DNA from: an uncultured Verrucomicrobiales bacterium | Lineage (GTDB): Bacteria; Verrucomicrobiota; Verrucomicrobiia; Verrucomicrobiales; DEV007 | Reading direction: 5' to 3' | Assembly: GCA_964500945.1 (NCBI GenBank) | Contig: CAZCRA010000002.1 | Span: forward strand, 27,683 to 91,682 | DNA: 64,000 nt | Shown here: in pieces, positions 4,185 through 36,212 of the stretch | Layout of the letters: each line of letters begins with the position of its first letter | How positions within the stretch are numbered: the stretch's first letter is position 1 | Program-made: the position numbers and the translations under genes | The notes under the pieces: model-generated | Seen by the model: only the letters and a program-made list of their open reading frames with translations | Databases searched by the model: none | What the model was told of the DNA's origin: nothing

Positions 4185-5357
4185 ATGGCAGGACTGGTTG
4201 TCAAACCGAGATCGCGCATCTTTCACGGCCACGAATGGGTGTATGGGACGGAGGTGAAGAAGGTCTTCGGTGAACCGAAGCCGGGCGATGTGATCTCACT
4301 GAAGGATTTTCGGGATCGAGCGCTGGGGAGCGCGATTTACAATCCGGACTCCCAGATCGTGGCGCGCCGGATTTCCCGTCGCCGTCAGGACCTCGACGCC
4401 GATTTTTTCACGCGACGGCTAGCCCGTGCCGACGACTACCGCCAGCGGCTTCCGGTGGCTGCTGAACCCGGGGTTTACCGGGTGATCTGGAGTGAGAGCG
4501 ACGGACTTCCGGGGGTGATCGTCGATCGTTACGGCGAACAGATTGCATTTCAGACGCAGACCCTCGCGATGGATCAGCGGCGTGACCTGCTCGTGGAGGC
4601 GATTCGCGAGCGGTTCGAACCCGAAGTGCTGGTCGAGCGAAACGATTCCGTGATGCGGGCGGCGGAAAAGCTGGAGACGCGCAAGACGGTCCTGGCCGGG
4701 AAGCCCGAGCGACGGACGGTGCGGGTTTCGGGGATCGTGCAACAGGTCGATCTTTGGGAAGGGCAGAAGACGGGTTTGTATCTGGATCAGCTCGACAATT
4801 ATGTCGACGTGGCCCGTCACGCGTCGGGGCGCCGGGTGCTCGATGCGTTTTGTAACCAGGGAGGGTTTGCGCTGGCAGCGGCGGGAGCCGGGGCGGCCGA
4901 GGTCACCGGGGTGGATGCCAGCGGCGGCGCAATCGAGTTGGCCAAGGAAAACGCCAGGGCCATGGATGTGGAGGCGCGGTTCGAAGAAGGCAACGCTTTC
5001 GATTTTCTCCGGGAAAGGGAAGCGGAGGGCGCCACCTACGACCTGGTCGTGCTCGACCCGCCGTCCTTCACGCGGAATCGGAAGTCGCTGCGGGACGCTC
5101 TCAGGGGATATAAGGAGATTCACCTTCGTGCCTTGAAGCTTCTCGAGCCGGGCGGGCTTCTCTCCACCTTCAGCTGCAGCCACCACGTGGATCACGCGGC
5201 GTATCTGGGAGTCATTCGAGAGGCGGCGGTCGATGCCAAACGGAATCTGAGGTTGGTCGCGCAGCACGGGCAGCGGATGGATCATCCGGTGCTTCCCCTG
5301 CTACCGGAGACGGAGTATCTTCGGGGCTTCACGCTGGAAGTCATGGCCGCCTGGTGA
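4185..5357 (+). CDS. rlmI: 23S rRNA m5C methyltransferase RlmI-like (PUA domain plus class I SAM methyltransferase)
   Basis: The translation shows RIFHGHEWVYGTEV, DGLPGVIVDRYGE, GQKTGLYLDQ, VLDAFCNQGGFALAAA and LVVLDPPSF. The start is trimmed to the ATG at 4185 (MAGLVVKPRSR). Confidence 0.85.
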   Translation: MAGLVVKPRSRIFHGHEWVYGTEVKKVFGEPKPGDVISLKDFRDRALGSAIYNPDSQIVARRISRRRQDLDADFFTRRLARADDYRQRLPVAAEPGVYRVIWSESDGLPGVIVDRYGEQIAFQTQTLAMDQRRDLLVEAIRERFEPEVLVERNDSVMRAAEKLETRKTVLAGKPERRTVRVSGIVQQVDLWEGQKTGLYLDQLDNYVDVARHASGRRVLDAFCNQGGFALAAAGAGAAEVTGVDASGGAIELAKENARAMDVEARFEEGNAFDFLREREAEGATYDLVVLDPPSFTRNRKSLRDALRGYKEIHLRALKLLEPGGLLSTFSCSHHVDHAAYLGVIREAAVDAKRNLRLVAQHGQRMDHPVLPLLPETEYLRGFTLEVMAAW

Positions 5358-7078
5358 GCGAACTCGATCAATATCTCCTTTTGCTGCGCTACCACACGCG
5401 GATGTTCGTCACGCGTTCGGCCCGGATGCTGCGGGAATCGAAGTTGGCCATGTTGGCGATGGCGCTGTTCCTGGCCGGGTATGCCTTCATGAGCTACTGG
5501 CTGTTCACGAAGGGGCTTTTTCTCGTTGAACGGGTGCCCGGGATTGGCGGATTTCTGGGCGACCGGATCATCTATCTGATCTTCTTCTTTTTCCTGCTGA
5601 TGCTGATCTTCTCGGTGGGGATCACGAATTACATCAGCTTGATCAAGGGGCGAGACATCGGCTGGCTTCTGACACTGCCCGTCACGCACCGGGTGATCTT
5701 TCTTTGGAAATCGACGGAGGCCATTCTCTTTGCGAGCTGGGGCCTGGTTTTCATCAGCGGACCGCTCTTGGTGGCGTTCGCGACGTCGCGTTACGCTCCC
5801 GAAAGCTTCTACTGGCGGGCGGCGCTCTGTGTCCTGCCCTTTGTCACGATTGCCGCGGTGACGGGCAGTGTGCTGTTTCTCGGCATTCTGCGTTGGGTTT
5901 CGCGTCCGGTGGGCATGACCTTGGCGGCCATCGTCCTGGCCTGGATCGGGTGGTCGGCCATCGGTGCCTACGAAGATGCCGCCGTGGCCCGCGAGCGGAC
6001 GATGGGGGTTGTCGCCATCAACGAGCTGCTCAAACACACCGAGATGAGCGTTCACCCCTTCCTGCCGAGCAGTTGGCTGAGCCGGTCGCTCATCCAGTGG
6101 ACGCGGGAGCTTCAGCACGATGCCGTTTTTCACGCGGTGCTTCTGTGGACCTGGGCGCTGATGGGCGTCGTGGCCATGTCGGCCGCTGGGCGGAGCTGGT
6201 TCTACTCCGGCTGGAACCGGAATCTACAGCGAGCGGGAATGGCGGTGAGCCGTCGCCGGGAGAGACGGCGTGGCAAGGCCTACGGCTGGAAGCGCTACCC
6301 CAACCGGGTCCTTGGATTGGGCCGGCCACTGCGGGCAGTGATCCGGAAGGACATCAAGACCTTCCTGCGTGAACCGTCGCAGTGGGTCCAATTCGCGATC
6401 GTTTTCGGTCTTTTGCTCCTCTACGTGCTGAATCTCCGGAATCTGGGCTATGACTATGAGAACCGGTTTTGGGCGGCACTGATCAGCGCGATCAACTTCA
6501 CGGTTTGTTCGCTGGCCGTGTCGACCTTGACCACGCGCTTCGTGTTCCCGCAATTCAGTTTGGAAGGGACGCGGATTTGGATCCTGGGCATGGCCCCGAT
6601 GCCGCTCCACTTCGTGGTCCTGCAGAAGTGGATCCAGGGATTCGTGACCATCGGGTTTGTCACGACCGCACTCCAAATCCTCTCCGGCCTGGTCCTGAAA
6701 CTGCCGGCGCAGGACATCGCGCTCTACGCCAGCTCCATCGCGATCCTCAGCATCGGGCTCTGTGGCATCGCCGTCGGGCTGGGCGCCGTCTTCCCCAATC
6801 TCGAAGAAACCAATGCTGCGAAGATCGTTTCCGGCTTCGGAGGGACGCTTTGTTTGATTTGCAGCTTCTTCTACATCCTGGCGTTCGTGACCTTGCTGTG
6901 CCTGGCCAAAGCCGACATTTTCCGCGGCGGCCCGAGAGCCCTGCCGGTGGAGCCGCTCGGCGTCGGAACGGAGGTGGCGGTTTTGGGGGCGATCGCGTTG
7001 ACGGTGGTGTTTGCCGGGGTGCCGCTGTTGATCGCCATGCGGCGGGTGCACCGAATGGAATTGCTGACCCCGAGCTAA
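5354..7078 (+). CDS. Polytopic inner-membrane protein with at least 10 hydrophobic segments, possibly an ABC-2 or exporter-like permease. Function unknown.
   Basis: The 574-aa ORF carries many 20-aa hydrophobic stretches in two halves, separated by a basic loop (RRRERRRGKAYGWKRYPNR). Its ATG overlaps the rlmI stop (ATGA at 5354-5357). No ATPase gene lies nearby. Confidence 0.6.
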   Translation: MSELDQYLLLLRYHTRMFVTRSARMLRESKLAMLAMALFLAGYAFMSYWLFTKGLFLVERVPGIGGFLGDRIIYLIFFFFLLMLIFSVGITNYISLIKGRDIGWLLTLPVTHRVIFLWKSTEAILFASWGLVFISGPLLVAFATSRYAPESFYWRAALCVLPFVTIAAVTGSVLFLGILRWVSRPVGMTLAAIVLAWIGWSAIGAYEDAAVARERTMGVVAINELLKHTEMSVHPFLPSSWLSRSLIQWTRELQHDAVFHAVLLWTWALMGVVAMSAAGRSWFYSGWNRNLQRAGMAVSRRRERRRGKAYGWKRYPNRVLGLGRPLRAVIRKDIKTFLREPSQWVQFAIVFGLLLLYVLNLRNLGYDYENRFWAALISAINFTVCSLAVSTLTTRFVFPQFSLEGTRIWILGMAPMPLHFVVLQKWIQGFVTIGFVTTALQILSGLVLKLPAQDIALYASSIAILSIGLCGIAVGLGAVFPNLEETNAAKIVSGFGGTLCLICSFFYILAFVTLLCLAKADIFRGGPRALPVEPLGVGTEVAVLGAIALTVVFAGVPLLIAMRRVHRMELLTPS

Positions 7079-9958: not shown

Positions 9959-10972
9959 TCAGCGCGAAGGCATTTCCGCTACGACGTCGTAGAAACGTGC
10001 CAGGTCGCCGTCGACCTCTCGAAGCGCTTGCTGGAAGCGGGGGAGTTCGTGGAAATAGGCCGCCACGATGTTGAGATGGGCGTTGGTGAGTGGCCCTTCG
10101 AGCCAGATGGATCCCGAGGCGTCGCGTCCGTTTGCGGTGAGCGCGCGCCGCAGGTCCTCCTGGAGTTCCGTGAGCAGAGCGGCTTTACGTTCCCGTTTCC
10201 CGGTGTCGGGCAGGTCGCTTTCGTAGAGGTCCGCGAGTTGGCTGCGGGTTTCGAGCACTCGCGTCACCAGTGTGCCGCGGCTTTTGGTGAAGCGTTCGAA
10301 GCGGTGGAGGGCTTCGGGCTCGCGGTGTTGGACGAGCCAGCGTCGCACGCCTTCTTCCTCGACCGCTACGGCAAAAGCTTCACTGAAGGCGGTATCGCCG
10401 TGGCGGTAGTATTTCTGGTGGGCGAGTTCGTGAAAAATCAGGCCGGCGAGCCGGTCCTCGGGGTAGTCGATGAAGGTGTTCAGCAGGGGATCGCGGCTCC
10501 AACCGAGGCTCGAGTAAGCCGGGACGCCGATCACGGCCGTTTCCAGACCATCGGCTTCGAGGCTCTCAGCCAGCGCTTCGGCCTTTTCCTGCCGGTAGAA
10601 TCCCCGGTAACAGAGGCGGCCCACGAAGGGATAGCGCCAATCGTGAGGTTTCACGCTCAATTCGCGGGCCGCGTAAACGCTCCAAACGACATACTCCCGG
10701 CCGAGGTCTTTGTAGCTCTCGTAGCTGCCGCCCGAAGGTAGAAGCAGGTCGCTCTCGGCGAAGGCGACAATCTCGCGGGACAACTCGAGTCGTTGGCGCA
10801 GTTCGGGCGACGTTTCTTCTTGGTCGAGGAGGCGCTCCACCGGGGTGCCACGAGACACCTCCAGATGCCCTTTGAGGGCTTGTCCATAGTAGGCGACCTG
10901 GCACGAAGCCGGAAGCAGCAGTCCCGCCGCCAGGATGCGTAGCCAAGATTTCAACGGGAGAGACAAAGGCAC
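9959..10972 (-). CDS. Predicted zinc aminopeptidase (putative-aminopeptidase/DUF2265-like family), probable lipoprotein
   Basis: A HExxH-type site is present (LIFHELAHQKYY). The lipobox-like N-terminus is LLLPASC. The stop codon directly abuts the gatA stop, giving a convergent pair. Confidence 0.65.
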   Translation of the reverse strand: MPLSLPLKSWLRILAAGLLLPASCQVAYYGQALKGHLEVSRGTPVERLLDQEETSPELRQRLELSREIVAFAESDLLLPSGGSYESYKDLGREYVVWSVYAARELSVKPHDWRYPFVGRLCYRGFYRQEKAEALAESLEADGLETAVIGVPAYSSLGWSRDPLLNTFIDYPEDRLAGLIFHELAHQKYYRHGDTAFSEAFAVAVEEEGVRRWLVQHREPEALHRFERFTKSRGTLVTRVLETRSQLADLYESDLPDTGKRERKAALLTELQEDLRRALTANGRDASGSIWLEGPLTNAHLNIVAAYFHELPRFQQALREVDGDLARFYDVVAEMPSR

Positions 10973-11027: not shown

Positions 11028-11528
11028 ATGCGGAGAAAGCGGCGGTTTGGGCGTAGGATCCTCTGCGTGGAATTGGTCCGCTTCAAACATGCGCGCTTCA
11101 CGGCGCGATTTCCGAAAGACTACCGCTATTCGCGGTCTCACTACTGGTTGTGTCCGGACCCTGAGCAAAGCGGGTTTTGGCGTGTGGGATTCACGAAGTT
11201 TGCCACTCGGATGCTCGGCGAGTTGGTGGAAGCGGAGTTCGAAGTGGGGGAGGGGGATCCGGTCGAACCCGGGCAGCAAATCGGCTGGGTCGAGGGGTTC
11301 AAAGCGGCGAGCGACGTGTTTTGCACGATGAGCGGCCGCTTTGGAGGGATGAACCCGGTGCTGCGGGAGGATGCGTGCATCATTCGCGAGAGTCCGTATG
11401 TCGATGGATGGCTTTACCGGGTGGAAGGCGAACCGGAAGCGGAGAGCATGGACGTGGAAGGTTACCTGGCCCATCTCGAGGGTCTCATCCGGCAGATGGA
11501 GAAGGATCCGAAGTATGCCGACGATTGA
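11028..11528 (+). CDS. Glycine-cleavage H-protein-like lipoyl-carrier protein, orphan (no gcvT or gcvP nearby)
   Basis: The translation shows YRYSRSHYWL...GFTKFATRMLGELVEAEF...QIGWVEGFKAASDVFCTMSG...GWLYRVE. The lipoyl-lysine context E-x-x-K-A-A-S-D is retained, with the K codon at 11301-11303. The start is trimmed to the ATG at 11028. Confidence 0.75.
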   Translation: MRRKRRFGRRILCVELVRFKHARFTARFPKDYRYSRSHYWLCPDPEQSGFWRVGFTKFATRMLGELVEAEFEVGEGDPVEPGQQIGWVEGFKAASDVFCTMSGRFGGMNPVLREDACIIRESPYVDGWLYRVEGEPEAESMDVEGYLAHLEGLIRQMEKDPKYADD

Positions 11529-11609
11529 ACGGTCCGAACACATGGAAGAGAATGCGTTTGTGGGCCGTGGTTCGAGGCACGAGATTACCGACCGCAGTTT
11601 CACGACGTC

Positions 11610-12863
11610 ATGATGATCGAACTTTCCAGCCGGATGCTCCGGACGGTGGACCCAAAGCTTCTCTGGAATTTTCAGTGGAACTTTGGGGTCAAAGGCATCC
11701 GCTCGATCCAGCTTTTTAAGAAGCGGCTGCGCGAGGGGGTGTATTTCCCTCCGTTCCTCTACCTATCGATTCTCAACAGCTGTAATCTTCGGTGTCAGGG
11801 GTGCTGGGTGGACGTCGACCGTCCGCAGACGAAGATCGAGCTGGATGATCTGAACCGGATCGTGAACGACGCCCGGGAACACGGGAACAGCTTCTTCGGG
11901 ATCCTGGGGGGCGAACCGTTCATGCACCCGGAACTGTTCGATTTCCTGGCGCAGCATCCGGATTGCTTCTTCCAAGTTTTCACGAACGGTCAACTCATCA
12001 CTCCGAAGAAGGCGCGAACGCTTCGGAAGCTGGGCAATGCGACGCCGCTGATCAGCATCGAAGGCGATGAACTCGTCTCGAACGAGCGCCGGGGTGGAAA
12101 AGACGTTTACGAGCGCACTCTGCGGGGGCTGCGGAACGCTCTGGACGAGAAATTGCTGACGGGGGTGGCGACGAGCGTCTGCAAGACGAATCTCGATCTG
12201 CTGGTGAGCGAGCGGTGGCTCCGCCAGCTAGTCGATTTCGGCGCGCACTACGTGTGGTTTCACACTTACCGGCCCGTCGGTCCGCAAATCCACGAGGAAT
12301 TGGCACTCAGCCCGGAGGAAGCGCGGCGGGTCCGGCAGTTCGTGGTCGACATGCGCTGCAAGATGCCGATTGGGATCGTGGATGCCTACTACGACGGCGA
12401 GGGGCGCGCGGTCTGTCCGATGGCCACCGGAATCAGTCATCACATCGGGCCGACGGGTGGGGTGGAGCCGTGTCCGATCATCCAGTTCGCCACGGAGTCT
12501 GTTGGCGAGCGCTCCATTTACGAAACCCTCACGCAGAGCGGATTCATGAAGGATTTCCGCGAGACGGCGGCGCAACACACGCGGGGATGCATCGTGCTCG
12601 AGCGGCCGGATCTGGTGAAGGAGTTGGCGGAGAAACATGGGGCGCGCGACACGACACTGCGGCAGACGGCGATGGCGGAATTGGAAGGGATGACACCCAA
12701 AGGCAGCCAGTATCAGCCGGGCTGGGAGATCCCGGAGAAGCACTGGCTTTACCGCATTGCCAAGCATTTCTGGTTCAACGATTTCGGCGCTTACCAAAAC
12801 CAGAAGCCCGAGAAGCCGCGCATGCTGAAGCGGATCGCGCCCGTGACGGCGGTGCAGAACTGA
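11610..12863 (+). CDS. Radical SAM enzyme with a Cys-containing C-terminal extension; the layout resembles HpnH
   Basis: The CxxxCxxC motif is SILNSCNLRCQGCWV, with Cys codons at 11781, 11793 and 11802. GGEPF is present. A basic amphipathic leader precedes the cluster motif. The C-terminal segment is AVCPMATGISHHIGPTGGVEPCPIIQF. Confidence 0.85.
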   Translation: MMIELSSRMLRTVDPKLLWNFQWNFGVKGIRSIQLFKKRLREGVYFPPFLYLSILNSCNLRCQGCWVDVDRPQTKIELDDLNRIVNDAREHGNSFFGILGGEPFMHPELFDFLAQHPDCFFQVFTNGQLITPKKARTLRKLGNATPLISIEGDELVSNERRGGKDVYERTLRGLRNALDEKLLTGVATSVCKTNLDLLVSERWLRQLVDFGAHYVWFHTYRPVGPQIHEELALSPEEARRVRQFVVDMRCKMPIGIVDAYYDGEGRAVCPMATGISHHIGPTGGVEPCPIIQFATESVGERSIYETLTQSGFMKDFRETAAQHTRGCIVLERPDLVKELAEKHGARDTTLRQTAMAELEGMTPKGSQYQPGWEIPEKHWLYRIAKHFWFNDFGAYQNQKPEKPRMLKRIAPVTAVQN

Positions 12864-12904
12864 GGAGAGCCAGGGTCCGCGATTTGCGGTCATGGAAACG
12901 AACG

Positions 12905-13231
12905 ATGGCGGAAGAAAAGATCGTTTATTGCCGGTGCGCCTATGCGCAGGTGGTGCCTGAGGACGTCAAGGCCGAGGTGCTCCAGCGCCTGGCCGGGTCG
13001 GGCGTCAGTTTCGAGTGCGTTTCGGACCTGTGCGAGATGTCAGCGCGGCGGGACCCTCGTCTCGAAGCCATTTTTGGGGAGGGAGAAGTCCGGGTAGCGG
13101 CCTGCCATCCCCGAGCGGTTCGATGGCTGCTGCACGCCGCCGGGATCGACGCTCCGCCGGAGCGGGTGAAGGTCGCCAACATGCGGGAGGACGACGCCGA
13201 GCGCGTGGCGAATGAGACGCTGGGCGAGTGA
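12905..13231 (+). CDS. Small Cys-rich protein, tentatively MvhD/FlpD-like
   Basis: Only the last 108 codons of track ORF 12215..13231 are credible, because the upstream part overlaps the radical-SAM gene in another frame. The product is MAEEKIVYCRCAYAQVVPEDVKAEVL...FECVSDLCEM...VRVAACHPRAV. The pattern KIV-x-C-x-C ... ACHP resembles the hydrogenase delta-subunit-like fold as I remember it. Confidence 0.55.
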   Translation: MAEEKIVYCRCAYAQVVPEDVKAEVLQRLAGSGVSFECVSDLCEMSARRDPRLEAIFGEGEVRVAACHPRAVRWLLHAAGIDAPPERVKVANMREDDAERVANETLGE

Positions 13232-13265
13232 AAGCTCGGTCCATGAGAGGATTTATTAGCGAAAG

Positions 13266-14165
13266 ATGATCGATCAGGAAAACACACCATTTCAGGTCGT
13301 GCTCTACGAGGGGCGCGGGGCCGGTTTGATGGAAGCTTCGATGCGCTGGGGGCTGATGGGCCAGCTGTTGGATCAGGGCTATTGGGTCACCCGGGTGGCG
13401 CCAGACGGAGGCGGATTCGCTAAACCGGCGGGGCGATTGCTGGTGTTGGGGCAGTTTCCCGATGGCACGCCGGCCCTGGAGGATGCCGCAGGCGAGATCG
13501 AATTGGACGTTCGGGACATCAGTGGGCTGGATGAGGCGTTGATCCTGGCGCTCGTCGAAGAACGGCGGGGTGCCCACGCGATGAACCAGCCGGCGGGGGC
13601 GGCAGCGGTCGCGGGGACGAAATCGTGGAAGCCATGGTTCCCGGTGATCGACTACGATCGCTGCACGAACTGCATGCAGTGCCTGAGTTTCTGCCTGTTC
13701 GACGTGTATGGGGTCGATTCGGAACAGCGCATCCAGGTTCAGAACCAGGACAACTGCAAAACGAATTGCCCGGCCTGCTCACGGGTTTGTCCGGAGGTGG
13801 CGATCATGTTCCCAAAATACAAGGCCGGCCCCATCAACGGCGCGCCGGTCCGTCAGGAGGATCTGAACCGGGAAAAAATGAAGGTGGACATCTCCGCGCT
13901 ACTCGGTGGCGACATTTACTCGAACCTGCGGCAGCGAAGTGAAGCGGCGAAGTCGCGATTCGCGAAAGAGCGCAGCCCGGACAAGGCGTTGGACGAGCGG
14001 AAACGGTGTCTGACGAAGCTGCAGAGCGATGGCATCATCCCGACCGACGTGCTCGAGGAGATTGATCTGGCTTCGCTCCCAAGCATGGACGACATCCAAC
14101 GGAAGGCGAAAGAGGCGGCGGCGAAGGCTCAGGCGGCACTGGATGCGCAGAAGCCCTCGGAATGA
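13266..14165 (+). CDS. Ferredoxin-domain protein with two [4Fe-4S] motifs, an unknown N-domain and a charged C-terminal tail
   Basis: The first motif is CTNCMQCLSFC (CxxCxxCxxxC). The second is CKTNCPACSRVCP (Cx3CxxCxxxCP). Confidence 0.8.
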   Translation: MIDQENTPFQVVLYEGRGAGLMEASMRWGLMGQLLDQGYWVTRVAPDGGGFAKPAGRLLVLGQFPDGTPALEDAAGEIELDVRDISGLDEALILALVEERRGAHAMNQPAGAAAVAGTKSWKPWFPVIDYDRCTNCMQCLSFCLFDVYGVDSEQRIQVQNQDNCKTNCPACSRVCPEVAIMFPKYKAGPINGAPVRQEDLNREKMKVDISALLGGDIYSNLRQRSEAAKSRFAKERSPDKALDERKRCLTKLQSDGIIPTDVLEEIDLASLPSMDDIQRKAKEAAAKAQAALDAQKPSE

Positions 14166-14324
14166 GCGATTTTCATGTTCCTGCACCGTGCTCCACACGC
14201 CTTTTCCTTGAAGAAGGGCCGTTTTGAAAGACAACTGCGGGGTGATTCGGCTGTGTTTTACCCAGCTGAGCCCGTTTTTCGTCCAGGCGTGGGCGTCCAA
14301 CGGCAACGTTTACTCTAATTCATC

Positions 14325-16079
14325 ATGGCTTCCCCATCCAGCGAAATCCAGACCGTCAAGCTTCCTCAAAGCGTTCCGGTGACCACGACGCGGTTCCGGC
14401 CGCCCAAAAAGAACATTCCTCAGACGAAGGAAGAGCGAGACGCGTTGCTGGAGCGCGTGCGAGGGTATTTGGAGGAGGTTTCGGTGGTCCAGCCCATGCC
14501 GCTGGACGAGCTGGAGACCCACGCGCGGAAGATCCTGGAAGAAGCGGGGCTGGACCTGATTTACCTGCACTACACGGCAGTTTTGTTGAGCAACGAAGCG
14601 TGGCGCGAGGCGCTGGCGACCATTCCGTATGAACGGCGCCTGTTGCTGATGCCGAAGTGCCTGCGGGTGGAGGAAAAATGCCCGGCGCCATTCGACGAGT
14701 TCGGGTTGCTCTGCAAGCAGTGCGGGCTCTGCACGATTCAAGATTTCCAAAACGAAGCGGAGCGCTTGGGCTATGCGGTCCTTGTGGCGGAGGGATCGGC
14801 GATCGTGATGTCGCTGATTCAGACCGGGAAGATCGAGGCGATCGTAGGTGTCAGCTGCCTGCCCGTGCTGGAGCGGACCTTTCCCTACGTCGAAGCGGCG
14901 GCCATCCCGGCCATTGCGGTGCCTTTGCTGCAGGACGACTGCATCAACACGACGGTCGATAACGACTGGGTCTGGGATTACATCCACCTCACGAGCGAGG
15001 ACAAGACCCGGCGGTTGAATCTGAATCAGCTTCACGACGAGGTGCGGAGTTGGTTCGAACCCGAGACCGTCGAGGGGTTGATGGGCGAACCGGATGGGCA
15101 CGCGGAGCGGGTGGCGCGCGACTGGCTGCTGAAGGACGGGAAACGCTGGCGTCCGTTTTTGACCGTGGCGACTTACCAGGCACTGCGAGACGAGCCCGAG
15201 GCGCCGGTGCCAGACGGGGTCCGAAAGCTGGCTCTGGCGGTCGAGTGTTTCCACAAGGCATCGCTGATTCACGACGATATCGAGGATGAGGACCGGGAAC
15301 GCTACGGCGAGGCGACGCTGCACGAAGCCGAGGGGCTGCCGGTGGCGCTGAACGCTGGGGATCTCTTGATCGGCGAGGGCTACCGGCTCATCGCGGAAAG
15401 CGGCGTGCCGGCGGAAGCGATCGCGACGATGGTCCGTGCCGCGTCCGATGGGCAGCGGGAACTGTGCCGGGGTCAGGGAGCGGAGCTGGCCTGGGCACGC
15501 GATCCGTCGCCGCTGAAAACCACGCAGGTGCTGGAGATCTTCCGGTTAAAAACGGCGCCGGCCTTCAACGTGGCGCTGCAACTGGGTGCGGCAGCAGCCG
15601 GCAGAGCCGCCGAGGTGGACGGCACGCTGGCCAAGTTCAGCGAAGCGCTGGGCATCGCCTACCAGATCCGTGATGACATGGACGATTTGTCCCAGGATTC
15701 CGGCGACAACGAACAGCGGGCCTTCCGGCCGAGCGTGATGTTGGCTAAGGGGCGCGAGATGGCGAAGGGTGACGCGAAGAAGCTATTGGAACGGCTCTGG
15801 CGGAGGGAGATGGAGGACGCGGATTACGACGAGGTTCGGCGAATCGTTCACCAGGCTGGGGCGGATGAGAAGTGCATGCTGATGCTGGAGACCTACAAGG
15901 AAACGGCGATTCGCAGTTTAGCGGATTTGGAAAACGCGAATCTGAAAGGCCTGCTGCGCCGGGTGATCGGGAAGATCTTCAACGATCTCGAGATCAAGGG
16001 CTGGTGCCGGGAGTTCGAGGTGCGCAACGGGGTCCGGGAAGAGTCCGAAGCGAAATCGCAACCGGCCGCCGTGGCCTGA
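14325..16079 (+). CDS. Fusion protein with an N-terminal DUF116-like Cys-rich domain and a C-terminal polyprenyl diphosphate synthase
   Basis: The N-terminal half reads RRLLLMPKCLRVEEKCPAPFDEFGLLCKQCGLCTIQDF...IVGVSCLPVLE. The C-terminal half reads GKRWRPFL, FARM FHKASLIHDDIEDED (15273-15287) and SARM AYQIRDDMDDL (15672-15686). Confidence 0.8.
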   Translation: MASPSSEIQTVKLPQSVPVTTTRFRPPKKNIPQTKEERDALLERVRGYLEEVSVVQPMPLDELETHARKILEEAGLDLIYLHYTAVLLSNEAWREALATIPYERRLLLMPKCLRVEEKCPAPFDEFGLLCKQCGLCTIQDFQNEAERLGYAVLVAEGSAIVMSLIQTGKIEAIVGVSCLPVLERTFPYVEAAAIPAIAVPLLQDDCINTTVDNDWVWDYIHLTSEDKTRRLNLNQLHDEVRSWFEPETVEGLMGEPDGHAERVARDWLLKDGKRWRPFLTVATYQALRDEPEAPVPDGVRKLALAVECFHKASLIHDDIEDEDRERYGEATLHEAEGLPVALNAGDLLIGEGYRLIAESGVPAEAIATMVRAASDGQRELCRGQGAELAWARDPSPLKTTQVLEIFRLKTAPAFNVALQLGAAAAGRAAEVDGTLAKFSEALGIAYQIRDDMDDLSQDSGDNEQRAFRPSVMLAKGREMAKGDAKKLLERLWRREMEDADYDEVRRIVHQAGADEKCMLMLETYKETAIRSLADLENANLKGLLRRVIGKIFNDLEIKGWCREFEVRNGVREESEAKSQPAAVA

Positions 16080-16095
16080 GGAGGCGGTCCATCCG

Positions 16096-16980
16096 ATGTC
16101 GCTGCGGCTGGAAATGCTCCAGGTGGCGCGCCTGGCGCCGCGGGTGCTCGATGAAGCGGCGGATCTCGTGTGCGAATTCGTGCGCGGACAGGAGCGGGAC
16201 GATGGCGGGTATCCGGACCGCGATGGCAAGAGCGATCTCTACTACACGAGTTTCGCCGTCGATGCGTTGACGGCGCTGCAGGATCCGCTGCCGGAGCGTC
16301 GTCTGGCGGGGTTTTTGAGGGGTTTCGGCGACGGTGACGGGCTGGATTTCGTCCATTTATGCTGTCTGATCCGGCTGTGGTCGGTGCTGCGCGAGGAGAG
16401 ACCGGAACCGGCGCAGCTGGAGCGGATGTTCAAGCACCTGGAACGGTTCCGGAGCGACGATGGGGGGTTCGAGGTGGATGCGGAGGCGGATGAGGGTTCG
16501 GCCTACGGCTGCCTCCTGGCCTACGGGGCCCACGCGGATCACGGGCGGGAGGTGGAACGGCTGGAGGCACTGGCGGACTGTCTGGACCGGTTGCGGGCCG
16601 AAGGCGGGGGATGGGCGAACGACTCGATGATTCCGATCGGTTCCGTTCCGGCCACGGCGGCGGCGGTGACCGTGAGCCGGAACCTGCGGCATCCTGTTCC
16701 GGAGGGAACGGGCGACTGGCTCATGGCGCAGTTCCATCCGCAGGGCGGGTTTGTGGCGGTGCCGGGTGCGCCGATGCCGGATTTGCTCTCGACGGCGGTG
16801 GCGCTGCATGCGCTGGACGGGTTGCAGGCGGATTTCGAGGTGCTCAAGGAGCCCTGCCTGGATTTCATCGACAGCCTATGGACGAACGCCGGCGGGTTTC
16901 ACGGGAATTGGAGCGATGACGAACTGGATTTGGAGTACACCTACTACGGCTTGTTGGCGCTGGGGCACCTGGCGCTGTAG
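16096..16980 (+). CDS. Small prenyltransferase/squalene-oxidase-repeat (alpha/alpha-toroid) protein
   Basis: The 294-aa product carries repeated motifs: ERDDGGYPDRDGKSDLYYTSFAVDAL, RSDDGGFE, RAEGGGWAND, HPQGGFVAVPGAPMPDLLSTAVALHAL and NAGGFHGNWSDDELDLEYTYYGLLAL. I see no obvious Zn-ligand Cys/His at the positions used by protein prenyltransferase beta subunits. Confidence 0.7.
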   Translation: MSLRLEMLQVARLAPRVLDEAADLVCEFVRGQERDDGGYPDRDGKSDLYYTSFAVDALTALQDPLPERRLAGFLRGFGDGDGLDFVHLCCLIRLWSVLREERPEPAQLERMFKHLERFRSDDGGFEVDAEADEGSAYGCLLAYGAHADHGREVERLEALADCLDRLRAEGGGWANDSMIPIGSVPATAAAVTVSRNLRHPVPEGTGDWLMAQFHPQGGFVAVPGAPMPDLLSTAVALHALDGLQADFEVLKEPCLDFIDSLWTNAGGFHGNWSDDELDLEYTYYGLLALGHLAL

Positions 16981-18783
16981 GTGAGGTTTGGTCCGCGCGA
17001 GGGTATCGCAACAGGTGAAGGGATGGATTTCGAGAGCGTGAGGTTGAAGGCGCGGGAACGGCTGCTGGCGGAGCGGACGGCCGGCGGCTGGTGGACCGGA
17101 GAATTGTCCAGCAGTGCGCTCTCGACCGCGACGTCGATCGTGGCGTTGACCTTGGTGGAGGCGCACCGGGAGCGGATCAGGCGGGGGGTGACGTGGCTGG
17201 CTGGGCAGCAAAATCCGGATGGCGGCTGGGGCGACACGGACCGGAGTTTTTCGAATTTGTCGACGACGCTCCTGAGTTGGTCGGCGCTGAAGTTGGCGAG
17301 GCATCCGGACCGGGCTGCGTTGGAGCGGGCGGAGAGGTGGATTGGTGAGCGGGCAGGAGATTTGGATCCGGAGACGCTGGTCAGGAAGGTAACGGAGAGG
17401 TATGGGCGCGACCGGACGTTCGCGGTGCCGATCCTCATGATGTGCGCAATCTGCGGGACCCTGGGCGAACCGGATGCCGCTTGGCGCCGGGTGCTACCGT
17501 TGCCGTTCGAATTGGCGGCCTTTCCGAGGGAGTGGTTCGCGGCTTTGCGGCTGCCGGTGGTGAGCTACGCGCTTCCGGCCTTGATCGCGATCGGCTATGC
17601 GCGGCACCATCACGCGCCTGCGCCGGTGCCGTTGAGATGGGTCCGGTCGATGATTTGGCCACGGGTATCTGGGCTGCTCGAGCGAATCCAGCCCGGGAGC
17701 GGTGGTTTTCTGGAGGCCGCGCCGTTGACGGGCTTCGTGACGATGGCGTTGGCCTCAGCGGGCGAGAAGGATCATCCGGTGGCCCGCCGGGGTGTGGGGT
17801 TTCTGGTCGAGGGACAGCGGGAGGATGGGAGTTGGCCGATCGACACGAATCTTTCGACGTGGGTGACGACGCTGGCGGTGAAGGCGCTCTGGCGGGAGGA
17901 ACCCTGTACCGTGGAGGAGAGCGACGGGGTGTTGAGTTGGCTTCGGGCACAGCAGTATGTTCGGGTCCATCCCTTCACCAACGCCGCCCCGGGAGGCTGG
18001 GCCTGGACAAACCTGAGCGGCGGGGTGCCGGACGCCGATGATACCCCCGGAGCTCTTTTGGCCCTGCGTCTGCTCGATCCCGGGGCGCGAGAGGCGGCGG
18101 AAGCCGGGATTGGTTGGTTATTGGACCTGCAGAATTCGAACGGTGGAATTCCAACCTTTTGCCGGGGATGGGGCGCCCTACCCTTCGACCGGTCGAGCGC
18201 GGATCTGACGGCACACGCGCTGCGGGCGTGGGCAGTGTGGCGCGAGGAGGTGGCTGACGAACTCCGGGAGCGGATCGATCGAGCAGCGGCGCGCGCCATG
18301 GCCTTTCTGGCACGGCAGCAGCGGAGTGATGGCTCCTGGGTGCCGCTTTGGTTTGGCAATCAACACGTGACGGACGAAGAAAATCCGGTCTACGGGACGG
18401 CGAAGGTCGTGCTGGCGTTGAACGAAGTGCGCGACTGGTTGCCGGAGGGCGAGGTGTTGCGGAAGGGTGGCGTGGCTTGGCTGGAGACCGCGCAACGGGG
18501 AGACGGGAGTTTTGGCGGCGACGGAAGCGACAGCGGACCGGGGTCGATCGAAGAAACGGCGCTGGCGACGGAAGCCTTGATTCGCGCCGGGCGACTCGAC
18601 GCCGGGGGGCGGGGTTTGGAAGCGCTCGGCAAACTGACGGAGGGAGGAACGGCGTTTTCGGCGTCTCCAATTGGATTCTACTTTGCGAAACTGTGGTACT
18701 ACGAGCGGTTGTATCCGCTAATTTGGACCGTGAGCGCCTTTGAAGCGGGGAAGGCGGACGGGCTGGATTCTAGATTCACGTGA
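16981..18783 (+). CDS. Squalene-hopene-cyclase-like class II terpene cyclase
   Basis: QW-type repeats are present (QQNPDGGWG, QREDGSWP, QNSNGGIP, QQRSDGSWVPLWFGN, QRGDGSFGG). The catalytic-type motif is PGGWAWTNLSGGVPDADDTPGALLAL, with DADD at 18031-18042. The C-terminus is GFYFAKLWYYERLYPLIWTVSAF. A GTG at 16981 directly follows the upstream stop, and an alternative ATG lies at 17023. Confidence 0.8.
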   Translation: MRFGPREGIATGEGMDFESVRLKARERLLAERTAGGWWTGELSSSALSTATSIVALTLVEAHRERIRRGVTWLAGQQNPDGGWGDTDRSFSNLSTTLLSWSALKLARHPDRAALERAERWIGERAGDLDPETLVRKVTERYGRDRTFAVPILMMCAICGTLGEPDAAWRRVLPLPFELAAFPREWFAALRLPVVSYALPALIAIGYARHHHAPAPVPLRWVRSMIWPRVSGLLERIQPGSGGFLEAAPLTGFVTMALASAGEKDHPVARRGVGFLVEGQREDGSWPIDTNLSTWVTTLAVKALWREEPCTVEESDGVLSWLRAQQYVRVHPFTNAAPGGWAWTNLSGGVPDADDTPGALLALRLLDPGAREAAEAGIGWLLDLQNSNGGIPTFCRGWGALPFDRSSADLTAHALRAWAVWREEVADELRERIDRAAARAMAFLARQQRSDGSWVPLWFGNQHVTDEENPVYGTAKVVLALNEVRDWLPEGEVLRKGGVAWLETAQRGDGSFGGDGSDSGPGSIEETALATEALIRAGRLDAGGRGLEALGKLTEGGTAFSASPIGFYFAKLWYYERLYPLIWTVSAFEAGKADGLDSRFT

Positions 18784-19876
18784 GAATCTGGCGGATTTGG
18801 CTTTCTCGGGCTTCGATGCTTTCGCAGAGCTTCATTTGAACGCGGGCGCGGTGGAGGTTTTGGAGTTCGTGCCGGACTTTAAAATAGCGGTTTCCCGCCA
18901 GGTAATCGGTGTAGAACCGGAGCCCGAGTTCAAACGCGATCAGGCGAACGGCGTCGTAGAGGAAGCGATGGTCTGTCGGTGAAAGAAAACCGGAAGCCTC
19001 GCGGAGATAGCCCCGCATGAGGGCATCGAAAAGATCGAGATCGAAATAAACCTCGTCGAGGTCCTGGGTTTCCTCGCCGGCCGGGTTGCAGGCGCTCCGT
19101 GCGGCATCGCCGACGTCGTAGTGGATGAGCCCTGGTTTGACCGTATCAAGATCGATGATGGCCGTCCCTCGGCCGGTGACGTCATCGATCATGATGTTGG
19201 TGATCTTCGGGTCTCCGTGAATGGGCCGGATGGAGAGTTCACGGGAGGCCGCGGCATTTTCCAGGACGGGAACGAAGGACCGGCGATCCTCGATGAAGCG
19301 GGCGATCCGCTGCGATTCGGCCGAGGCCGTGAGGAGTCGCTCCCCCCCGGGGGTGGCGCGGATTTCGTCGAACGCCCGCAAGTAATCCGGCGTCACGTGG
19401 AAGCCTGGCAGGGTGTCGGCGAGATTTGCGACGGGAAAATCGGCGATGAGGTGATGAAAATGTCCCAGGACCCTGCCGGCTTCGAAGGCGTGTTCGGGGG
19501 AGTGCACCCGGTCGTGGCTTTTGGCCGAAGCGATCAGGGACAGCCCCCGCCAGTAGCTGCCATCGGGAGCTTCGAAGAGATCCCGGCCGTCGCGAGCGGG
19601 AATGATCCGTGGGAGCTGCCAGATCCGATCGGCTTCATCGGCGGCCGCTTCGATCCGGCGATGGGCATGCTCCGTGACGGCACGCATGTTCGCCATCACG
19701 GTTTCGGGCGATTTGAAGACGGCGTGATTGATGCGTTGGAGGACGAAGCGGTGTTCATCGAAGGTGGTGCGAAAGACGGCACAGAAGGTGTCGTTCACGT
19801 TCCCCGACCCGAGCGGTTCGACGGTCACCAGACGGCCGGGGACGTCGAAGGCCTTTGCGGCATCGGCTGGATTCAT
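18776..19876 (-). CDS. APH-fold sugar kinase, N-acetylhexosamine-1-kinase (NahK)-like
   Basis: The translation shows VEPLGSGNVNDTF, FVLQRINHAVFKSPETVMANMRAVTEH, IHGDPKITNIMIDD and IIDLDTV. The start is trimmed to the ATG at 19876, which overlaps the nadE stop (ATGA). The 3' end overlaps the cyclase gene by 8 nt (convergent). Confidence 0.7.
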   Translation of the reverse strand: MNPADAAKAFDVPGRLVTVEPLGSGNVNDTFCAVFRTTFDEHRFVLQRINHAVFKSPETVMANMRAVTEHAHRRIEAAADEADRIWQLPRIIPARDGRDLFEAPDGSYWRGLSLIASAKSHDRVHSPEHAFEAGRVLGHFHHLIADFPVANLADTLPGFHVTPDYLRAFDEIRATPGGERLLTASAESQRIARFIEDRRSFVPVLENAAASRELSIRPIHGDPKITNIMIDDVTGRGTAIIDLDTVKPGLIHYDVGDAARSACNPAGEETQDLDEVYFDLDLFDALMRGYLREASGFLSPTDHRFLYDAVRLIAFELGLRFYTDYLAGNRYFKVRHELQNLHRARVQMKLCESIEARESQIRQILT

Positions 19877-21810
19877 GCGTCGTCCAGTTCGTTCAGCTCC
19901 TGCTCGAAACCGCCGGAAAGGATCGGGAAGCGGCACCAGGTTTTCGGATCGAGGTTTTCGTCGTCCAGGTGGAACGAGGGGGCAAACCTCTCGCGCTTCC
20001 ACTGGTTCCTCGACCAGAGGCGGAAGAAACGGCGGACCCACTCGACCCGTTGCGGTCGCGGTTCGTCCGGAAAATCGACGGCGAGGCGCTCAACGATGGT
20101 GGCGGGAGACGATTTGTCACGGATCGCCGCGCGTTCGATGGCATCGAGGACGGGGAAAGGCATCAGATCGGCCTCATCGGTTTGCGCCTCGGATTCGGGT
20201 CGGAGCTCGGCGGTGGGTTGCTGAGCGTTGATGAGGGTGAGTTCGGGAATGGGACGGATGCGATCGCTTCCCTCGGTTTCGAGCCAGCGCAGCCAATGAC
20301 GGAGGAAGGCTTTGTCGATGCCGCAAATCGGGCTGAGACCGCCGCTGGTATCGCCGTCCATGGTGGTGTAACCCACGGCGGCTTCGGAGCGATTCGAGGT
20401 GGCGAGTAGAAGGGCGCCGCGGAGGTTTGCCAGCATCCAAATGCCGGGTGAGCGGACGCGCGCCTGGATGTTTTGGAGGGCCAAATCGTCCCGTTCCCAG
20501 CTCAACTCCCGGTCGAGCGCCGAGGAGGCGAGGCCGGTGTATTTTTCGATGAGACCGGAGATCTCCCATCGGTGAAACGATGCACCGAGGGATTTCGCGA
20601 GCGTCCGGGCGGCGGTCTCCGTAGTTTCCGAACTGTTCTCCGAAGCCTGGTAAACGCAGGTGAGAAGCTGGGCCATGCCGGGTTCAGGGAGCTTCAACCA
20701 GTCGCCCAGCCGGCGCACGACCTCGACGTCGCCCAGTTCCGCGCGGCTCAGATCGAGCATGATTCGGACCAAACACGCGATAGCACCGGAGTCAGCTCCG
20801 CCGCTGAGGGAAAGGACGAACCCCCGGCTATGGCTTTTGCGGAGGTAATCGAACAGAGCCAAAGCCACGGCGTGGGCGAATTCCTCTTCTTTGGAAAGGG
20901 TGGGGTAGGTGGTGCTGGGGTCGATCGAAACGGCTGGCTCGTCTTTCCAGGGGAAATCGATCGCGACATCGGCACCGTCGTCCGGGGCGACGGCGCGCCC
21001 GACGGTCCGGGCCTGCTCGCTGCGCAGGCGATCGAGAGGGATCGCTGCGTGAATGAGATGGTGTTCCCGAAAGCTGAGTCGAGGATGAGCCGCCAGAAGA
21101 CGGCCACCACAGGCGATGAGAGTGCCGCCATCGTAAATCGCGCGTCCGGCCTCGTTCCCGAGGAGGTTGGCGTAGAGGTAGACCGAACCGTAGGCGCGGG
21201 AGTGTTCGAGGACGTAGCGATGCCGGATGGCGTCTTTTCCAAAGGCAAAATGGCTGGCACTGGGATGGAGGATGACGTCCGCGCCGCGGGCGGCGAGCCG
21301 GGAACCGGGTGTCGACGCCACCCAGGCATCCTCACAGATTTCGATGCCGAACCGGACGCCGCCGATTTCGTAGAGGAGATCGCCGACCGGTACACCGTTC
21401 CAGGTGGTGACGACGCCGGGGGGCCAGGGTTTGAACCAGCGCGGCTCGTAGTGGAGGCCATCGCCGGCGAGATGTTGTTTGGGGGTGATGCCCAGGATGC
21501 GGCCATTCGCGATGAGGGCGATGGCGTTGTAGACCGCGCCACGAAGCCACAGCGGGATACCGAGCGTGAGGATCAGGTTCTCCGATTCGGTGGCCAGTTC
21601 CTCGACGGCCTGCCATGCGCGGTCGGCGAGATGCGGAGCGAGGAAAACGTCTTCGCACCCATATCCGGGGACGTTCATCTCCGGGAGGCAGAGAACCTGA
21701 GCCCTGGCCTCCCGGGCGGATGCCATGGCGGCGCGGATCCGGGTGAGATTACCCGGCCAGTCGAGCGGCGTCTGGTTCAGGGCCGCCGCGGCGACGGTGA
21801 TGGCATCCAT
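19873..21810 (-). CDS. nadE: Glutamine-dependent NAD+ synthetase (CN-hydrolase domain plus PP-loop synthetase)
   Basis: The nitrilase-type domain shows LCLPEMNVPGYGCED and FGIEICEDAW. The PP-loop is VLSLSGGADSGA. Confidence 0.9.
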   Translation of the reverse strand: MDAITVAAAALNQTPLDWPGNLTRIRAAMASAREARAQVLCLPEMNVPGYGCEDVFLAPHLADRAWQAVEELATESENLILTLGIPLWLRGAVYNAIALIANGRILGITPKQHLAGDGLHYEPRWFKPWPPGVVTTWNGVPVGDLLYEIGGVRFGIEICEDAWVASTPGSRLAARGADVILHPSASHFAFGKDAIRHRYVLEHSRAYGSVYLYANLLGNEAGRAIYDGGTLIACGGRLLAAHPRLSFREHHLIHAAIPLDRLRSEQARTVGRAVAPDDGADVAIDFPWKDEPAVSIDPSTTYPTLSKEEEFAHAVALALFDYLRKSHSRGFVLSLSGGADSGAIACLVRIMLDLSRAELGDVEVVRRLGDWLKLPEPGMAQLLTCVYQASENSSETTETAARTLAKSLGASFHRWEISGLIEKYTGLASSALDRELSWERDDLALQNIQARVRSPGIWMLANLRGALLLATSNRSEAAVGYTTMDGDTSGGLSPICGIDKAFLRHWLRWLETEGSDRIRPIPELTLINAQQPTAELRPESEAQTDEADLMPFPVLDAIERAAIRDKSSPATIVERLAVDFPDEPRPQRVEWVRRFFRLWSRNQWKRERFAPSFHLDDENLDPKTWCRFPILSGGFEQELNELDDA

Positions 21811-32926: not shown

Positions 32927-33013
32927 ACGATCGCAACCTTGCAAATCGAACCGGAGAAGGTCAAACCGACCGGTTGCTGTAAAGGCGGTTCCGGTGTTCT
33001 CGTCCAACGAGCA

Positions 33014-34480: not shown

Positions 34481-34580
34481 CGCAGGAGGAAGGTGTTGGC
34501 CGGAGAGAGCTGATAATAAAGGCTTCTTTATAATTTGATTTTCGAGATCTCTTCCCTATCATAGCTACCAAGCCTCTCGC

Positions 34581-36170: not shown

Positions 36171-36212
36171 CGGGTCCGATTCGCCATCCACCAGTCCTCC
36201 CTCGACATCACC

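Follow-up and report, generated by a model that had tools for sequence, protein, structure and literature searches.

Two evolutionary studies (Santana-Molina et al. 2020, PMC7306690; Mol Biol Evol 2025, PMC12414744), in the sections that treat it, describe an 'SHC-like' clade of the Planctomycetes-Verrucomicrobia-Chlamydiae (PVC) group and other Gracilicutes as the main uncharacterized branch of terpenoid cyclases, and state that knowledge of its substrate would constrain the evolution of the sterol and hopanoid cyclases. The clade includes Verrucomicrobia and has no assigned function; its planctomycete members are described there as keeping the catalytic residues, in a genomic context that suggests a non-squalene precursor (PMC12414744 section 6; PMC7306690). 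Here we analyze a 64,000-nucleotide stretch of contig CAZCRA010000002.1 (positions 27,683 to 91,682, forward strand; hereafter the window) from a Verrucomicrobiales metagenome-assembled genome (MAG), in which a block of seven genes joins a cyclase that fits this clade to a DUF116::polyprenyl synthase fusion and to radical S-adenosylmethionine (radical-SAM) and iron-sulfur proteins. The block genes are, with fair confidence, coupled in function, and they form a conserved and probably co-transcribed unit; judged by gene content, the block is a trimmed copy of a Verrucomicrobial cluster of nine to ten genes.

The cyclase of the block resembles the 'SHC-like' proteins, as far as the two papers describe them, in its PVC host, in a beta-gamma architecture with N- and C-terminal SQHop_cyclase domains and a catalytic Asp motif, and in a polyprenyl synthase context with no squalene genes nearby. 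Its length of 586-600 amino acids (aa) lies inside the 550-700 aa range given for the clade in PMC12414744. These features make the protein a candidate member of the clade, and by family scores it is not squalene-hopene cyclase (SHC), oxidosqualene cyclase or SqhC. The passages on the clade in both papers report no linkage to genes for radical-SAM, DUF116, NifS, COG0523 or GcvH-like proteins, or for the split iron-sulfur protein that we call C-F.

Other described systems share some of these parts. The SHC/hpn clusters (SHC, HpnCDE, HpnH) are alike in the cyclase fold, in QW-type repeats, in a DxDD motif aligned with D374-D377 and in a clustered radical-SAM gene. Here, however, family scores reach about a quarter of their cut-offs, no squalene synthesis gene was found in the window, and the radical-SAM enzyme is not HpnH; the hpn clusters in turn have no counterpart of the toroid protein or of the iron-sulfur, desulfurase and H-protein genes seen at this locus and in its relatives. 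In the Bacillus sporulenol pathway (HepS/HepT, YtpB, SqhC) and in the epoxy-polyprenyl cyclases Lon15 and AtoE, an SHC-family cyclase acts not on squalene but on a head-to-tail polyprenyl chain from a polyprenyl diphosphate synthase, which is also the putative substrate here. The present locus differs in lacking both an epoxidase and a class I enzyme of the YtpB type, in a DxDD motif of the alkene-protonation type, and in a redox and radical-SAM set that is unique to it. Lipoate-binding systems (LipA; LipS1/LipS2 with LbpA, sHdr clusters) likewise place a GcvH-type carrier with a lipoyl Lys beside a radical-SAM enzyme with auxiliary-cluster-like Cys, ferredoxin-type proteins and, in relatives of this locus, a cysteine desulfurase; but the present cluster lacks a ligase and an octanoyl transferase, its radical-SAM enzyme matches no lipoyl synthase family, and its H-like gene is dispensable.

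DUF116 (arCOG02078) is, by prediction, an electron-transfer domain rich in Cys, with a fold like that of flavodoxin, and a polyprenyl synthetase fused to it has been noted, with no function assigned, in Pirellula staleyi (Psta_0175) (Makarova et al. 2015, PMC5898192, section 3.6). The fusion and the conserved Cys, including a CxxCxxC, are shared with our locus. Stand-alone archaeal DUF116 proteins, in contrast, have two N-terminal membrane helices and lie near sulfite/nitrite reductase or ArsA-type genes, whereas the domain here is cytosolic-looking and fused. Since both the 'SHC-like' clade and the fusion have been published before, each as an unknown, it is the linkage that appears to be new and not the parts. 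We found no description of this cluster in the literature searched, and an earlier note on this DNA rightly held that the gene combination matches no characterized pathway that could be found.

Results

A scan for the fusion, with one genome per GTDB species, returned 80 Verrucomicrobiales loci (67-76% fusion identity), and all window proteins were searched against these by tblastn. Ten of the 47 adequately flanked species (at least 6 kb upstream and at least 4 kb downstream of the fusion) keep the window's order R-C-F-FUS-P-Y (symbols as in Table 1). The genes that flank the block in the window (gatA, an aminopeptidase, an APH-type kinase and nadE) lie near the fusion in 0 of the 80 species. 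In a neighbor-joining tree of the fusion, clustered and eroded states all fall in one half, and the other 41 leaves are never accompanied by the neighbors. The eroded states comprise loci with only R, C and F beside the fusion, with only F, or with only P and Y; F is the neighbor most persistently kept. Elsewhere the cyclase stands with the toroid gene only, or alone. One locus, from a close relative (L076, fusion 75% identical), has an insert of about 2.8 kb that separates the ferredoxin gene from the fusion, and the locus carries no radical-SAM, toroid or cyclase gene, an example of cluster erosion.

A metagenome scan anchored on the cyclase gave 80 further loci, with 48-59% cyclase identity. 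Six of the 21 loci with at least 8 kb upstream of the cyclase hold the full set, and of 57 cyclase-anchored loci, 23 have the toroid gene directly before the cyclase. Clustering of open reading frames (ORFs) in 21 clustered loci showed that the R, C, F, FUS, P and Y families are present in all 21. Further families recur: a COG0523 GTPase with an invariant GCFCC (GCxCC metal motif; 17/21), a protein of about 70 aa, helical and without family, that always adjoins the desulfurase (17/21), a NifS/IscS-type cysteine desulfurase with intact SxGSAC (catalytic Cys) and HK (pyridoxal phosphate Lys) motifs (16/21), and the GcvH-like protein (16/21). The "seven genes" of the earlier note are linked in relatives too, but the invariant core is six, and the GcvH-like gene is accessory: some loci lack it beside the cluster, and several lineages do without it. 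The 64-kb window contains none of GTPase, desulfurase and 70-aa gene. In five loci the cluster is bordered by a protein of about 210-250 aa that matches no family and has a hydrophobic segment at its N-terminus.

More distant loci, in which the fusion is 53-62% identical (L122, L140, L147, L129, L137 and L141), pack the same set of nine or ten genes into about 12 kb, in varied orders and orientations, at least five other gene orders being found among them (Table 1). In L147 the cyclase lies beyond the redox genes, and in L122 it lies directly behind the desulfurase, on the strand opposite to the fusion. Spacing between cluster genes is tight or overlapping in many loci. That the same set is kept in shuffled orders speaks for functional coupling and can hardly be put down to descent alone. 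Among the matches listed, homologues of the block proteins all come from Verrucomicrobiales or Verrucomicrobiota MAGs; the best 120 matches of the protein searches, to which the context look-up was confined, are all from Verrucomicrobia, and no annotated plasmid context matched DUF116 or the cyclase.

Table 1. Positions of block genes, neighboring features and comparable features in related loci. Positions without a locus prefix refer to the window; A5, f7 and W denote other cluster genes.
Feature	Position	Strand	Length	Family or remark
GcvH-like protein (H)	11028..11528	+	166 aa	Pfam GCV_H
Radical-SAM enzyme (R)	11610..12863	+	417 aa	Pfam Radical_SAM; SPASM/twitch structural class (from model)
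4-Cys protein (C)	12905..13231	+	108 aa	Predicted N-terminal half of split redox protein
2x[4Fe-4S] ferredoxin-domain protein (F)	13266..14165	+	299 aa	Predicted C-terminal half of split C-F protein
DUF116::trans-polyprenyl diphosphate synthase fusion (FUS)	14325..16079	+	584 aa	Pfam DUF116 + polyprenyl_synt
DUF116 domain of FUS	~14544-14981	+
Synthase domain of FUS	~15114-15806	+
RYG segment of FUS	15285-15305	+		Residues 321-327
Prenyltransferase-repeat alpha/alpha-toroid protein (P)	16096..16980	+	294 aa	Pfam Prenyltrans
SHC-like class II terpene cyclase (Y)	16981..18783	+	600 aa, or 586 aa from ATG 17023	SQHop_cyclase_N/_C
Aminopeptidase	9959-10972			PF10023; divergent upstream gene
APH-family kinase	18776-20041	-		Convergent downstream gene
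Second polyprenyl synthase	1833-2828
ABC_tran_2 gene	5354-7078	+		PF16949; 4 kb upstream of block
Secretin and Poly_export/SLBB region	30452-37265	+
COG0523 GTPase in a relative	L010:6162-7283
NifS-type desulfurase in a relative	L010:14679-15827	-
~70-aa protein in a relative	L088:1973-2209
~210-250 aa bordering protein, examples	L010:15827-16465	-
	L060:5603-6364
Insertion between F and FUS	L076:7180-10001		~2.8 kb
Tes homologue of sister clade	L085:12132-13511		459 aa	Also L012, L014, L015, L017, L019, L024, L031, L033, L039, L047, L050, L054, L059, L063, L071
Order A5-f7-H-W-R-C-F-FUS-P-Y	L088, L089, L095
Order H-W-C-F-R-FUS-P-Y	L140
Order Y, then A5, then H-W-C-F-R-FUS-P	L147			A5 on opposite strand
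Order P-FUS-R-F-C-H facing A5-Y	L122			Two opposed strands
Order R-FUS-P-Y	L137, L141
Order Y-H-C	L129

At the level of the window, the layout described in the earlier note was reproduced throughout: seven co-directional ORFs separated by gaps of 81, 41, 34, 159, 16 and 0 nt, a divergent gene upstream, and a convergent gene that overlaps the last one by 8 nt. Six of the seven gene models are identical to genes called on a 95,241-nt NCBI contig. For the cyclase, the NCBI gene calls start at Met15; residues 2-14 of the longer form have counterparts in some homologues. No terminator-like site was found in any intergenic gap of the block, nor any Rfam match. A riboswitch or terminator in the 159-nt gap was considered and rejected, since nothing was found there, and the length of this gap is not conserved among relatives. 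Profile searches with all seven proteins upheld six of the seven domain calls made earlier, and none of the proteins reached a curated NCBIfam cut-off.

The cyclase has the two-domain architecture expected of its family (SQHop_cyclase_N, 5.9e-18; SQHop_cyclase_C, 5.2e-33), and the DADD that had been read as a DxDD-type motif is one: PDADDT aligns to PDVDDT of SHC 1gsz, and GGVPD[A/G]DDT is invariant in 120/120 homologues (the best 120 listed). In class II cyclases, an acid of DxDD type is in keeping with protonation of an alkene, not with the opening of an epoxide. Among solved structures, SHC is the best relative (1.5e-20). Scores against NCBIfam (TIGR01507/TIGR01787), at 105.3 for hopene_cyclase (cut-off 431.1) and 119.9 for squalene_cyclas (cut-off 322.7), show that the protein keeps the protonation motif without being a canonical SHC. 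The toroid protein upstream is a Prenyltrans-repeat protein as proposed (Pfam 1.7e-10) and adjoins FUS in all clustered loci. It is only weakly similar to the farnesyltransferase beta subunit (E 0.06), whose class carries an Asp/Cys/His zinc site, and has no invariant Cys in 21 orthologues (residue alignment by eye). The idea that it is a duplicated half of the cyclase was rejected, the similarity being at repeat level only (E ~0.015).

Both halves of the fusion protein were likewise borne out (Pfam DUF116 3.6e-34, polyprenyl_synt 2.6e-39). The DUF116 domain (PF01976/arCOG02078) scores 117.9 bits against a cut-off of 25 and has seven invariant Cys (C112, C119, C130, C133, C136, C178 and C206), among them the CxxCxxC; its AF2 model, from a shallow alignment, has a pLDDT below 50 over residues 100-217. 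In the synthase domain (PF00348) the first and second Asp-rich motifs, DDIED and RDDMDD, are intact and invariant. The nearest Protein Data Bank (PDB) entries are the archaeal geranylgeranyl diphosphate synthases (GGPPS) 5jfq and 1wy0, both of which have RRG, which binds the substrate diphosphate, after the first Asp-rich motif. In the fusion this is RYG (R326, Y327), invariant in 31 fusions, so altered substrate binding is a possibility. Five residues before the first Asp-rich motif, where 5jfq and 1wy0 have the Phe or Tyr floor residue, the synthase has Ala, and an invariant Phe stands at -8. Mutants of archaeal GGPPS have yielded rules for chain length, and under these the residue pattern predicts a product longer than C20. 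The supply of prenyl diphosphate had been called "dedicated" to the block. That part of the earlier proposal is not supported, because across the order both the fusion and the radical-SAM gene keep 67-81% identity, and in about two thirds of species they lie away from the other cluster genes.

In a sister clade, 16 loci carry the fusion without the window's neighbors and with a 459-aa radical-SAM protein 0.1-2 kb after it (7 kb in L047). The 459-aa protein is homologous to GDGT-MAS/Tes, the tetraether synthase of archaea (7tol, E 2.7e-40; Pfam Zn_ribbon_HMPTM); Lgt is next after it in most of the 16 loci. No gene for a Tes homologue is present in the window.

The radical-SAM enzyme of the block (Pfam Radical_SAM, 5.7e-15) has the motif CNLRCQGC (C58/C62/C65) and five further conserved Cys at 119, 191, 269, 288 and 327, the last three in a Cys-bearing C-terminal extension after a partial TIM barrel. 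Neither of the Pfam domains SPASM and DUF3463, which the earlier note had listed for profile searches, was detected, and it reaches no NCBIfam family at cut-off. Its AF2 model (pLDDT 85.5) has SkfB, SuiB, BlsE, PqqE and anSME as nearest PDB folds in Foldseek (probability 1.00, TM ~0.55); these solved folds place the modeled enzyme in the SPASM/twitch structural class, with a putative auxiliary cluster. The gene is 70-81% identical across Verrucomicrobiales. Two identities were tried and rejected: HpnH (TIGR03470), with 34.7 against 225 bits and no DUF3463 in Pfam, and GDGT-MAS/Tes, excluded because 7tol is absent from the PDB matches.

The 108-aa protein had been likened to FlpD. This call fell, since PF02662 (MvhD/FlpD) was matched by 0/19 family members at E<=10 and a family profile searched against the PDB found none either; the protein itself has no Pfam, NCBIfam or PDB match. 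Its C9, C11, C43 and C67 are invariant. A search with it returned 552 representatives at E<=1e-3, a family without a name, and many of these are proteins of 280-440 aa with the 108-aa domain at the N-terminus. Eight of ten long representatives sampled carry a dicluster ferredoxin domain downstream; in one (P0397, 439 aa), residues 131-396 are 47% identical to F over the full length of F. The product of the next gene, F, is the 2x[4Fe-4S] ferredoxin-domain protein that it was taken for, with Fer4 dicluster families over residues 124-185 and eight invariant Cys. Since the two domains are fused elsewhere, genes 3 and 4 of the block (12905-14165) are, on this sequence comparison, a split form of one redox protein of other organisms, C-F.

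The GcvH-like assignment was confirmed (GCV_H, 5.5e-18), as was the lipoyl-lysine context: vegfKaasdv aligns with aesvKaasdi of Escherichia coli GcvH 3a8i (E-x-x-K-A-x-S-D hairpin), and EGFKA is invariant in 16 orthologues. The protein falls below the cut-offs of the NCBIfam GcvH equivalog TIGR00527 (67-73 against 116-117 bits). A family scan of the window covered its approximately 50 largest ORFs, and there was no gcvT or gcvP among them. The same scan found no SQS_PSY or hpn-type family, in agreement with the claim that squalene-synthesis and hopanoid genes are missing from the window.

The remaining window genes are unrelated housekeeping and envelope genes. The second synthase that had been reported is a polyprenyl synthase with HepT, solanesyl and octaprenyl synthases as nearest families. 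The ABC_tran_2 gene upstream of the block has homologues (40-44% identity) 2-7 kb from the fusion in 18 sister-clade loci, where it is a recurrent neighbor. Downstream, an internal ATG of the kinase gene (19876) would overlap the NadE stop by 4 nt (ATGA; 19873-19876, minus strand; ORF translation read by eye), and this overlap suggests translational coupling of nadE and the kinase gene if the kinase starts there. Farther away, a secretin gene, a 513-aa ORF without family match and two Wza-like Poly_export/SLBB genes follow one another, apparently as a cluster for envelope export that has no relation to the terpene-cyclase block.

Discussion

What stands of the earlier interpretation is a conserved, probably co-transcribed unit whose cyclase keeps the protonation motif and is not a canonical SHC; the seven-gene unit and the FlpD assignment do not stand, and the dedicated supply is unsupported. 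We favor, tentatively, a reading in which this unit makes a cyclic isoprenoid that is not derived from squalene and is tailored by the radical-SAM enzyme with a C-F/DUF116 electron chain. From gene content, motifs and linkage we infer a substrate, a chain length, partner roles and a radical-SAM target as follows. The synthase domain would build an all-trans prenyl diphosphate, probably longer than C20. The DxDD acid of the cyclase would protonate a terminal double bond and bring about ring closure, with the toroid protein as a possible partner, and the product would be a cyclic isoprenoid of non-squalene origin. The radical-SAM enzyme would tailor this lipid or its precursor and would be reduced through the C-F iron-sulfur protein, perhaps also through the Cys-rich DUF116 domain. 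The desulfurase, GTPase and H-protein, where present, may supply or maintain iron-sulfur clusters, or provide sulfur for the tailoring. In favor of this reading count the conserved linkage, the intact motifs of cyclase, synthase and radical-SAM enzyme, the low SHC and oxidosqualene cyclase scores, the Ala at the floor position of the synthase, and the fact that the sister-clade fusion lies beside a different lipid radical-SAM enzyme.

Several observations weigh against it. Most species do not keep the genes together: the fusion is without any of its five neighbors in 32 of the 47 adequately flanked species, 12 of the 21 metagenome loci with sufficient upstream sequence hold the cyclase alone, and the radical-SAM gene is alone in some genomes, once on the contig of the fusion but 27 kb away from it. 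Conservation is also much higher for the fusion and the radical-SAM gene (67-81% identity) than for the cyclase and toroid protein (52-65%), a pattern expected of housekeeping genes. The synthase may not be a standard chain-elongating enzyme, given RYG in place of RRG. The structural relatives nearest to the radical-SAM enzyme mostly modify peptides or proteins, and the combination of desulfurase, COG0523 GTPase and H-protein resembles cofactor or protein maturation more than lipid tailoring.

These points bear most directly on an alternative in which the locus consists of two or three independent, neighboring modules, the main rival to our reading and a possible but doubtful explanation in our estimate. 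The first module, with R, C-F, the GcvH-like protein, the COG0523 GTPase and NifS, would serve protein or cofactor maturation, which on the H-like protein might mean a modification of lipoyl or thioether type; the DUF116::synthase would be the housekeeping prenyl-diphosphate synthase of the order, equipped with a redox domain; and P and Y would be a separate terpenoid pair that merely profits from an adjacent substrate supplier. Order-wide conservation of each gene, the frequent unlinked state and the action of SkfB, SuiB, PqqE and anSME on peptides or proteins all favor such an arrangement. Consistent with it, the H-like protein keeps an invariant lipoyl-type Lys, the desulfurase and GTPase keep their functional motifs, and sub-modules occur apart from one another (F with FUS, R-C-F with FUS, FUS with P-Y, and P-Y alone). 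Independent modules would not, however, be expected to come together as a full set in at least five gene orders, including the cyclase placements of L122 and L147. Moreover, the cluster has neither an octanoyl or lipoyl transferase nor a precursor of the type of ribosomally synthesized and post-translationally modified peptides, and the 4-Cys protein is a domain of a ferredoxin protein and not a substrate peptide.

Descent alone would make the block the decaying ancestral arrangement of one Verrucomicrobiales lineage, with no coupling between its genes. The confinement of the cluster to one half of the fusion tree and its many eroded states would fit this, and the unrelated-looking ABC_tran_2 gene, which recurs beside the fusion across both clades, indicates that some synteny can persist without an obvious functional link. 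Yet complete clusters occur rearranged in more distant lineages, the block is conserved where its flanks are conserved in no species, C and F are fused elsewhere, and spacing is tight or overlapping in many loci; pure synteny by descent, like a canonical hopanoid pathway, is therefore unlikely, and we consider it quite improbable.

An ordinary hopanoid or squalene-derived triterpenoid pathway, with a divergent SHC, squalene made elsewhere and a divergent HpnH-like radical-SAM enzyme, is highly improbable: although source annotations call the homologues squalene-hopene cyclase, the best solved relative is SHC with DxDD kept, and DUF116, IspH, SHC, HpnH and a polyprenyl synthetase occur in one Bipolaricaulota cluster (bioRxiv 10.1101/2025.11.21.689855, Fig. 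S12), the scores are far from the cut-offs (hopene_cyclase 105 vs 431, HpnH 34.7 vs 225), no squalene-synthesis or hpn gene is among the large ORFs of the window, and published phylogenies, in the parts that concern the clade, set the PVC 'SHC-like' proteins outside SHC (PMC12414744, PMC7306690).

Returning to the favored non-squalene isoprenoid, the cluster offers a defined, expressible gene set with a candidate substrate supplier, a candidate partner subunit and a putative tailoring radical-SAM enzyme with its electron chain, and it makes the substrate question of the 'SHC-like' clade a feasible experiment. It is also the first contextual handle on DUF116, on the split C-F iron-sulfur family and on the 70-aa partner of the desulfurase, and it gives a hint that a phylum abundant in water and soil carries out radical chemistry on isoprenoids. 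A more specific form of the proposal, which we think rather unlikely, is that Verrucomicrobia, and perhaps other PVC bacteria, produce a polycyclic isoprenoid not yet described, possibly a hopanoid or sterol surrogate, in which the 'SHC-like' cyclase closes the rings of a regular prenyl chain of C25-C35 directly and without oxygen; a radical-SAM/iron-sulfur system encoded in the cluster, fed by its desulfurase, H-protein and metallochaperone, would insert sulfur into this lipid or cross-link it. If this were true, the last large clade of triterpenoid-type cyclases still to be characterized would gain a substrate and a pathway, and lipid biomarkers of a new class would be predicted; should the product prove a stable cyclic lipid, it could itself serve as a new biomarker.

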